A stretch of DNA of 13,784 nucleotides. It comes from a virus. Taxonomy: Duplodnaviria > Heunggongvirae > Uroviricota > Caudoviricetes. The stretch lies in the IMG/VR virus record IMGVR_UViG_2548876856_000011, positions 1-13,784 of that record; one strand, given 5' to 3'. Of the stretch, positions 6,695-7,071 are shown piece after piece (the stretch's first letter is position 1; the number at the start of each line of letters is the position of its first letter). The notes below the pieces were generated by a model. The model saw nothing but the letters and a program-made list of their open reading frames with translations. It was not told where the DNA came from and did not search any database. Position numbers and translations under genes: made by a program.

Positions 6695-6883
6695 ATGAAA
6701 ACGTTATTACCAAACGTTAATACGTCTGAAGGTTGTTTTGAAATTGGTGTCACTATCAGTAACCCAGTATTTACTGAAGATGCCATTAACAAGAGAAAAC
6801 AAGAACGGGAGCTATTAAATAAAATATGCATTGTTTCAATGCTGGCTCGTTTACGTCTGATGCCAAAAGGATGTGCACAATGA
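6695..6883 (+). CDS. dicB: DicB cell-division inhibitor (MinC-activating), 62 aa
   Basis: ATG at 6695 with GAGG RBS 8 nt upstream; MKTLLPNVNTSEGCFEIGVTISNPVFTEDAINKRKQERELLNKICIVSMLARLRLMPKGCAQ matches DicB from memory. The ORF-track form from 6590 is an upstream extension. Confidence 0.8.
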   Translation: MKTLLPNVNTSEGCFEIGVTISNPVFTEDAINKRKQERELLNKICIVSMLARLRLMPKGCAQ

Positions 6884-7071
6884 ATTCAGCATTTGTGCTT
6901 GTTCTGACAGTTTTTCTTGTTTCCGGAGAGCCAGTTGATATTGCAGTCAGTGTTCACAGGACAATGCAGTAGTGTATGACTGCAGCAACCGAACAGAAAA
7001 TTCCCGGTAACTGTTACCCGGTCGATAAAGTTATTCACCAGGATAATATCGAAATCCCGGCAGGTCTTTAA
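6880..7071 (+). pseudogene. ydfD: ydfD-like lysis-protein gene interrupted by an in-frame TAG at codon 31
   Basis: ATG 6880 overlaps the dicB stop (ATGA). Reads MNSAFVLVLTVFLVSGEPVDIAVSVHRTMQ, then TAG at 6970..6972, then 32 more sense codons in the same frame (CMTAATEQKIPGNCYPVDKVIHQDNIEIPAGL) to TAA 7069..7071. Total 63 codons, the length of K-12 YdfD. Confidence 0.55.

Follow-up and report, generated by a model that had tools for sequence, protein, structure and literature searches.

The stretch of DNA analyzed here, called the window over its whole length of 13,784 nucleotides (IMG/VR virus record IMGVR_UViG_2548876856_000011, Caudoviricetes), carries at 6880-7071 a 63-codon frame interrupted by a single amber codon. 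We consider it very likely that this frame represents a Qin-type ydfD gene with a genuine, inherited nonsense allele (Glu31, GAG to TAG), passed on both vertically and horizontally and in keeping with ordinary cryptic-prophage decay. Translation of the frame reads MNSAFVLVLTVFLVSGEPVDIAVSVHRTMQ, stop, CMTAATEQKIPGNCYPVDKVIHQDNIEIPAGL, stop: TAG at 6970-6972 separates 30 sense codons from another 32, and TAA at 7069-7071 closes the frame, exactly the layout described in an earlier note made from the nucleotide letters and their open reading frames (ORFs). The same note placed a hydrophobic segment within the first 30 codons, with which the hydropathy profile agrees: the Kyte-Doolittle 11-residue mean reaches its maximum of 3.17 at residues 4-14, the hydrophobic core, and mean hydropathy amounts to 1.03 for residues 1-30 versus -0.15 for residues 32-63.

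Comparison with the Qin prophage of Escherichia coli K-12 identifies the gene. K-12 ydfD (b1576), encoding a 63-residue lysis protein, is the same gene with 191 of 192 nucleotides identical, the sole mismatch being a G>T exchange at 6970 that turns GAG (Glu31) into TAG. Within a three-way alignment of window positions 6600-7400, this exchange is the lone difference from K-12 MG1655 in 801 nucleotides, and enteropathogenic E. coli (EPEC) E2348/69 equals the window over the same 801 nucleotides without any difference. Glu31 to TAG belongs to the 16 of 558 possible single-base substitutions in ydfD that create a stop. The nonsense mutation with intact dicB that the earlier note had considered is hence present, one mutational step away from K-12, with the dicB product annotated as WP_000854559.1 in both K-12 and strain ESBL 15. 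The gene also occupies the same position as in K-12, overlapping the dicB stop, 3' of ydfABC and DicF and 5' of an exonuclease gene. Unlike the window, K-12 Qin harbors GAG at codon 31 and an exonuclease gene truncated by the insertion sequence (IS) element IS2, which is full-length in the window; the window element further differs from Qin by its tRNA-Ser(CGA)/mtfA site and a different immunity region.

With the stop repaired, the translation matches the Pfam family DUF1482 (PF07358) with 91.1 bits (cut-off 25), residues 4-61 covering profile positions 1-57 of 57, whereas an NCBIfam scan of the full, N-terminal and C-terminal ydfD sequences yielded no match to a YdfD model; naming of ydfD by the Prokaryotic Genome Annotation Pipeline (PGAP) evidently follows a route other than an NCBIfam model. 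Judged by alignment and profile, the frame is not a chance ORF and not just ydfD-like, but ydfD itself. Both the profile match and the position directly downstream of dicB, overlapping it within the dicBF operon, place it in the YdfD/DUF1482 family, in which an uninterrupted ORF of around 60-67 codons with both domains is expected; this ORF is broken here by the TAG at codon 31. Because of this stop, the window copy is assigned to the family by descent, as a pseudogene, and not as a predicted functional member.

The amber codon in public genomes

We searched 5,426 complete E. coli genomes with allele-specific probes of 55 nucleotides centered on position 6970, so that each 28-nucleotide megablast seed necessarily includes the allele base. 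The T-allele probe matched 30 places in 26 of the 5,426 genomes, and the G-allele probe 4,357 places in 3,483 genomes, with up to five matches per genome. Two independent assemblies of E2348/69 (NC_011601.1 and CP059840.2) both carry T, and three separate assemblies, those of ESBL 15, 19AR0254 and 22-250, are 100% identical to the window over all 13,784 nucleotides. Many laboratories and countries are represented among the amber carriers, whose sources are humans, cattle, pigs, dogs, chickens, a panda, fish, seawater and cucumber; in 21 amber-allele records, the surrounding 801 nucleotides are identical as well. When these 801 nucleotides served as megablast query, ESBL 15 gave a second match.

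The amber ydfD is already known, in that public RefSeq annotation flags it as a pseudogene. This label (RefSeq/PGAP: 'lysis protein YdfD, internal stop') was found in 13 of 13 amber loci fetched, and the identical amber allele is a RefSeq pseudogene in EPEC O127:H6 E2348/69 (E2348C_RS28290), with equivalents in ESBL 15, C7, D1 and others. A literature search pairing ydfD with pseudogene returned nothing on the amber allele. The exact 30-residue N-terminal product is called on 13 further public contigs and the exact 31-residue C-terminal ORF on 80, the latter figure not being an amber count, since other upstream ydfD lesions yield this ORF too. Wild-type YdfD protein is found on at least 1,000 contigs. 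Most of the short DUF1482 'proteins' seen in a cluster look-up are partial sequences at contig ends and do not represent alleles.

These data bear on the sequencing error that the earlier note had offered as its alternative, in which the true codon would be GAG and ydfD intact. A one-base difference from the common allele is what such an error would produce, but the same T recurs on different prophage backbones in 26 complete genomes, whose projects, hosts and countries are unrelated, the two E2348/69 assemblies agree on it, three assemblies match the whole window at 100% and gene callers report the 30-residue product on 13 additional contigs. Sequencing or assembly error was rejected on the strength of the 55-mer probes (30 T copies, 26 genomes), and we regard it as almost inconceivable.

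Probable consequence for YdfD function

YdfD has been reported as an inhibitor of IspG, its target in the methylerythritol phosphate (MEP) pathway (PMC8835842), and is divided into two domains, N-terminal (residues 1-28) and C-terminal (residues 29-63) (Lu et al. 2022, PMC8835842). The truncation YdfD-deltaC35 retains IspG binding in vitro (Lu et al. 2022, PMC8835842), whereas deletion of one residue at either end of the protein results in survival on plates, the authors stating that 'intact YdfD is required' (PMC8835842). Killing by the C-domain alone is much poorer, as stated there with reference to Masuda et al. 2016 (PMC8835842), and YdfD lysis is blocked by co-expression of DicB or SulA (PMC8835842).

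The window ydfD lies in its normal place within an early operon repressed by DicA/CI, downstream of DicF and with its start overlapping the stop of intact dicB, and the element as a whole is a cryptic prophage remnant of around 10.5 kb next to tRNA-Ser(CGA). According to the proposed explanation, ribosomes coupled from dicB would, in a strain lacking an amber suppressor, read 30 codons and then terminate. The product would consist of the hydrophobic N-terminal domain only, with the C-terminal 32 residues unmade, or made in traces via read-through or a restart at ATG 6976. This copy would be null for lysis, leaving the functions of DicF and DicB unaffected. Since the product 1-30 approximates deltaC35 and lysis needs intact YdfD (PMC8835842), the amber allele is very probably a null allele for lysis. 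That the stop disarms a toxic protein, as put forward in the earlier note, would be a reasonable reading of the published truncations (PMC8835842).

Several points weigh against a complete loss of function. The published loss-of-function data derive from overexpression of other truncations, not of the 1-30 peptide. The 32 downstream codons are open in 13 of 13 amber copies, such that some residual function might persist if translation restarts at ATG 6976 or runs through the stop; the screen for suppressor tRNAs covers the window. The open 3' half carries little information, given that intact copies, too, show hardly any variation over the whole 1-kb block, and a conceivable restart at ATG 6976 would yield an N-terminally deleted, weak or inactive peptide. 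Within the window, ARAGORN detects two tRNAs, Ser(cga) and Asn(gtt), both non-suppressor, and no amber-suppressor tRNA; for the whole source genome, we infer absence of suppression. The remnant abuts the tRNA-Ser(cga) gene (10975-11064, - strand), whose anticodon is wild type, excluding suppression from this gene. It is the serU-type gene, whose CGA>CUA anticodon mutant is the classical amber suppressor supD.

Intact YdfD has been described as similar in action to phiX174 E, Q-beta A2 and LysM, single-gene lysis 'protein antibiotics' (PMC8835842), the likeness being a small protein that lyses dividing cells via a blocked step in envelope-precursor supply (PMC8835842). None of the three has a sequence relationship to YdfD, and the window copy is truncated and predicted to be inactive. 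Laboratory amber lysis alleles such as lambda Sam7 render lysis conditional on a suppressor. Unlike Sam7, the window amber is a natural allele of wild isolates, with no suppressor evident and no sign of conditional use.

Unlikely readings: a short gene or a functional interrupted gene

When 50,697 phage records were searched by tblastn with the repaired protein, 28 records matched; in 27 of them, coverage of the 63 residues reaches 80% or more, every one of these rows showing 95-100%. dicB adjoins ydfD in the E. coli phage matches, and distant homologs from phages of Klebsiella, Salmonella and Citrobacter, at 33-48% identity, align colinearly from residue 1 to residue 63; full length is clearly the family norm. 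A genuine 30-codon gene, in which the family product would end at the TAG and the downstream frame would be fortuitous, could draw on the 30-residue product that gene callers sometimes annotate, yet GAG stands at this position in K-12 and in over 4,300 further copies, the Pfam domain spans both halves, the diverged phage homologs continue in register to residue 63 and an essential C-terminal domain has been defined experimentally (PMC8835842). This candidate was rejected by Pfam coverage and by the phage search, and its probability is negligible. Improbable as well, though less so, is an interrupted gene that still functions, whether by read-through or suppression of the stop or by the halves acting as separate peptides; in variants of the latter, the 30-residue IspG-binding N-domain would serve as a decoy against YdfD of other prophages, or a C-terminal peptide would arise from a restart at ATG 6976. 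In its favor, ATG 6976 lies only 3 nucleotides past the TAG and the 3' half is open in all copies, residues 1-28, the N-domain in isolation, bind IspG in vitro but do not cause lysis (PMC8835842), and many E. coli contain several ydfD copies, with up to five probe matches per genome. On the other hand, the window tRNAs include no suppressor, ATG 6976 has no well-spaced Shine-Dalgarno sequence (AGGA at 6958-6961 sits 14 nucleotides upstream), killing on plates is lost when as few as 1-5 N-terminal residues are deleted, and the C-domain by itself is reported as much weaker (PMC8835842). The stop is missing from all diverged homologs, and one amber copy has T34A past the stop, a change that no sense allele shows and that fits relaxed constraint. 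Programmed read-through, for which the stop should be conserved in diverged homologs, finds no counterpart in the matches, as the stop occurs only on near-identical copies. With T as its next base, the TAG stands in an efficient terminator context, which also counts against read-through. Slighter still is the chance that the amber allele is a domesticating mutation spread between co-resident prophages by gene conversion, whose 30-residue peptide, with the IspG-binding domain kept, could act as a dominant-negative decoy against full-length YdfD of other resident or superinfecting phages.

Distribution and origin of the amber allele

The amber locus of E2348/69 and its equivalents in ESBL 15, C7, D1 and others differ from the window only in backbone and integration site. 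Copies at the tRNA-Ser (serU)/mtfA site comprise those of the window, C7, IAL7255, O157:H16 98-3133, Res13, PE164, 19KM2326N and FORC 064, whereas the copy of E2348/69 is adjacent to potC and one copy in Z1322HEC0010 is adjacent to rspB. Their immunity regions fall into at least five types, and their DicB proteins represent four alleles; dicB is intact in 13 of 13 amber copies examined, and four genomes harbor two amber copies each. Going by these backbones, a single clonal prophage does not account for the amber copies, nor is the allele private to the window strain. The second copy of FORC 064 (L010, around 6661-6970) displays a diverged dicB/5'-ydfD haplotype that becomes window-identical between 6897 and 6970, and because of this haplotype switch it suggests gene conversion between co-resident prophages.

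The amber copy of Res13 carries 6979A>G (T34A) just past the stop. In a four-gamete check, the haplotype combining GAG with 6979G was absent from all 5,426 genomes, providing no evidence of a recurrent TAG origin; therefore, the Res13 exchange arose after the stop, in sequence no longer translated. A single origin is not provable by haplotypes, because the block of around 1 kb is too invariant and markers are scarce. The earlier note had called the mutation recent, which holds in so far as the allele is one mutational step from K-12. It does not hold in the sense of a private change, as the allele is found at three sites, on at least five immunity regions and with four DicB alleles, and has acquired a private downstream change in Res13.

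Decay and selection

Other ydfD lesions were sampled at loci where the 31-residue ORF is called (L015-L023), a sample biased to disrupted ydfD. It includes the loss of 1 nucleotide at the position matching 6958 of the window, one gain and one loss of T in the T5 run at 6910-6914, an additional C at the equivalent of 6947 and an additional TG at the equivalent of 6893 (AP022177.1, L023). In the last of these loci, dicB also contains an additional C close to its 3' end (equivalent 6862), with a 71-residue DicB call, which may be real or an assembly error. Two IS3-family insertions in ydfD lie near 6897 and 6908, and a gut metagenome contig shows a start-codon change from ATG to ATA. Indel frameshifts of ydfD counted outside the window number five. 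Some of the 1-nucleotide indels may be long-read errors, which is less likely for IS insertions and start-codon loss. ydfD is repeatedly inactivated in nature, the amber allele being one among several lesions that have independently disabled it in natural E. coli.

Adaptive disarmament would hold that the amber codon removes the risk of YdfD lysis upon failure of a DicA-type repressor while keeping the benefits of DicB and DicF, with recombination spreading the allele. Compatible with a selected advantage are the intact dicB in all 13 amber copies and across four DicB alleles, the occurrence of the allele on several mosaic backbones, at three attachment sites and twice in four genomes, the many independent ydfD lesions and the high toxicity of YdfD when expressed (PMC8835842); in addition, DicB has been reported as beneficial against phage. 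However, the allele reaches only around 0.5% of genomes (30 versus 4,357 probe-detectable copies), which does not point to a sweep, three other pseudogenes reside in the element as neutral decay predicts, the lesions were sampled from disrupted ydfD copies, repression is the normal state of the operon, and co-expression of DicB already blocks YdfD lysis (PMC8835842). Disarmament by selection is possible but unlikely on this balance. Neutral decay fits the low frequency and the other pseudogenes of the remnant.

For annotation, the window ydfD is mainly to be described correctly as an ordinary pseudogene allele of a known gene, not as a new kind of gene. In the window strain and in around 0.5% of complete E. 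coli genomes, this copy of the Qin-type early operon keeps DicF and DicB and is very probably without YdfD lysis, judging by the published truncations. Nonsense, IS, frameshift and start-loss lesions within the near-invariant dicF-dicB-ydfD block make a preferential purging of toxic cryptic-prophage genes testable.

Operon and prophage context

Profile scans and annotation identify the surroundings of the window ydfD as a Qin-type early operon (Table 1). A repressor/Cro pair at 4689-5401 is followed by ydfA, ydfB and ydfC upstream of DicF. The motif ATGA at 6880-6883 overlaps the ydfD start with the dicB stop, because of which dicB and ydfD are presumably translationally coupled. Downstream, the exonuclease gene is the intact form of the one truncated by IS2 behind K-12 ydfD. 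An end of the ydfABC-dicFB-ydfD transcript has been reported for K-12 (PMC10448788), and the terminator-like hairpin in the gap between ydfD and the exonuclease gene agrees with it. By megablast of 6600-7400, the region is present in 4,404 of the 5,426 complete genomes, with dicB, ydfD ('lysis protein YdfD') and the exonuclease gene annotated.

Table 1 Features of the ydfD locus in the window
Feature	Position	Strand	Description	Evidence
ydfD pseudogene	6880..7071	+	63 codons then TAA, amber at codon 31	Translation, K-12 alignment, RefSeq/PGAP, Pfam
In-frame amber codon TAG	6970..6972	+	GAG (Glu31) in K-12; following base T	Alignment with K-12 and E2348/69, allele-specific probes
5' ORF, still translatable	6880..6969	+	30-residue hydrophobic N-terminal domain, approximating published YdfD-deltaC35 (residues 1-28)	Translation, hydropathy, product called on 13 public contigs, PMC8835842
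Leftover 31-codon ORF	6976..7071	+	Met33-Leu63, begins 3 nucleotides past TAG; possibly re-initiated at a low level	ORF list, sequence
dicB	6695..6883	+	Cell-division inhibitor, intact, 62 residues, identical to K-12	NCBIfam NF049927 132.8 bits; Pfam DicB 136.8 bits
DicF	6469..6520	+	Small RNA, same operon	Rfam RF00039 76.7 bits (gathering score 48), full length 1-52/52
Shine-Dalgarno-like AAGGA	6867..6871	+	8 nucleotides 5' of ydfD ATG	Read from sequence
3'-5' exonuclease gene	7164..9635	+	Full-length, 823 residues	Pfam Rv2179c-like 3'-5' exoribonuclease domain 225.9 bits; annotation
Terminator-like hairpin with T-rich tail	7109..7122	+	ydfD/exonuclease gap	Consensus scan, weak: 2 sites versus 1.1 expected

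Annotation depicts the window element as a remnant of around 10.5 kb without morphogenesis or lysis-cassette genes. Besides ydfD, it contains three pseudogenes, namely an integrase fragment at 473-993, a DUF1627 fragment at 2453-2655 and the integrase at 9897-10947. Both marks of a cryptic-prophage pseudogene, a disabling lesion and the loss of other phage functions, are found here. The exonuclease gene is followed by a small DUF4224 gene and then by the frameshifted integrase at 9897-10947, which abuts tRNA-Ser(cga); this tRNA-adjacent integrase is annotated as frameshifted in most serU-site copies as well. The integrase fragment at 473-993 bears a frameshift and an internal stop.

Between the elements compared (L001-L008), a block of around 1 kb (6394-7393) spanning dicF, dicB, ydfD and the 5' part of the exonuclease gene differs by 0-6 nucleotides per 200, as against 60-148 differences per 200 nucleotides in the neighboring immunity regions of the same elements, the block being a strikingly conserved module in mosaic prophages. 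Beyond the remnant, an intact tyrosine integrase gene (12297-13559) directly follows tRNA-Asn (12056-12131), and because of this arrangement a second integrated island is suggested to begin here.
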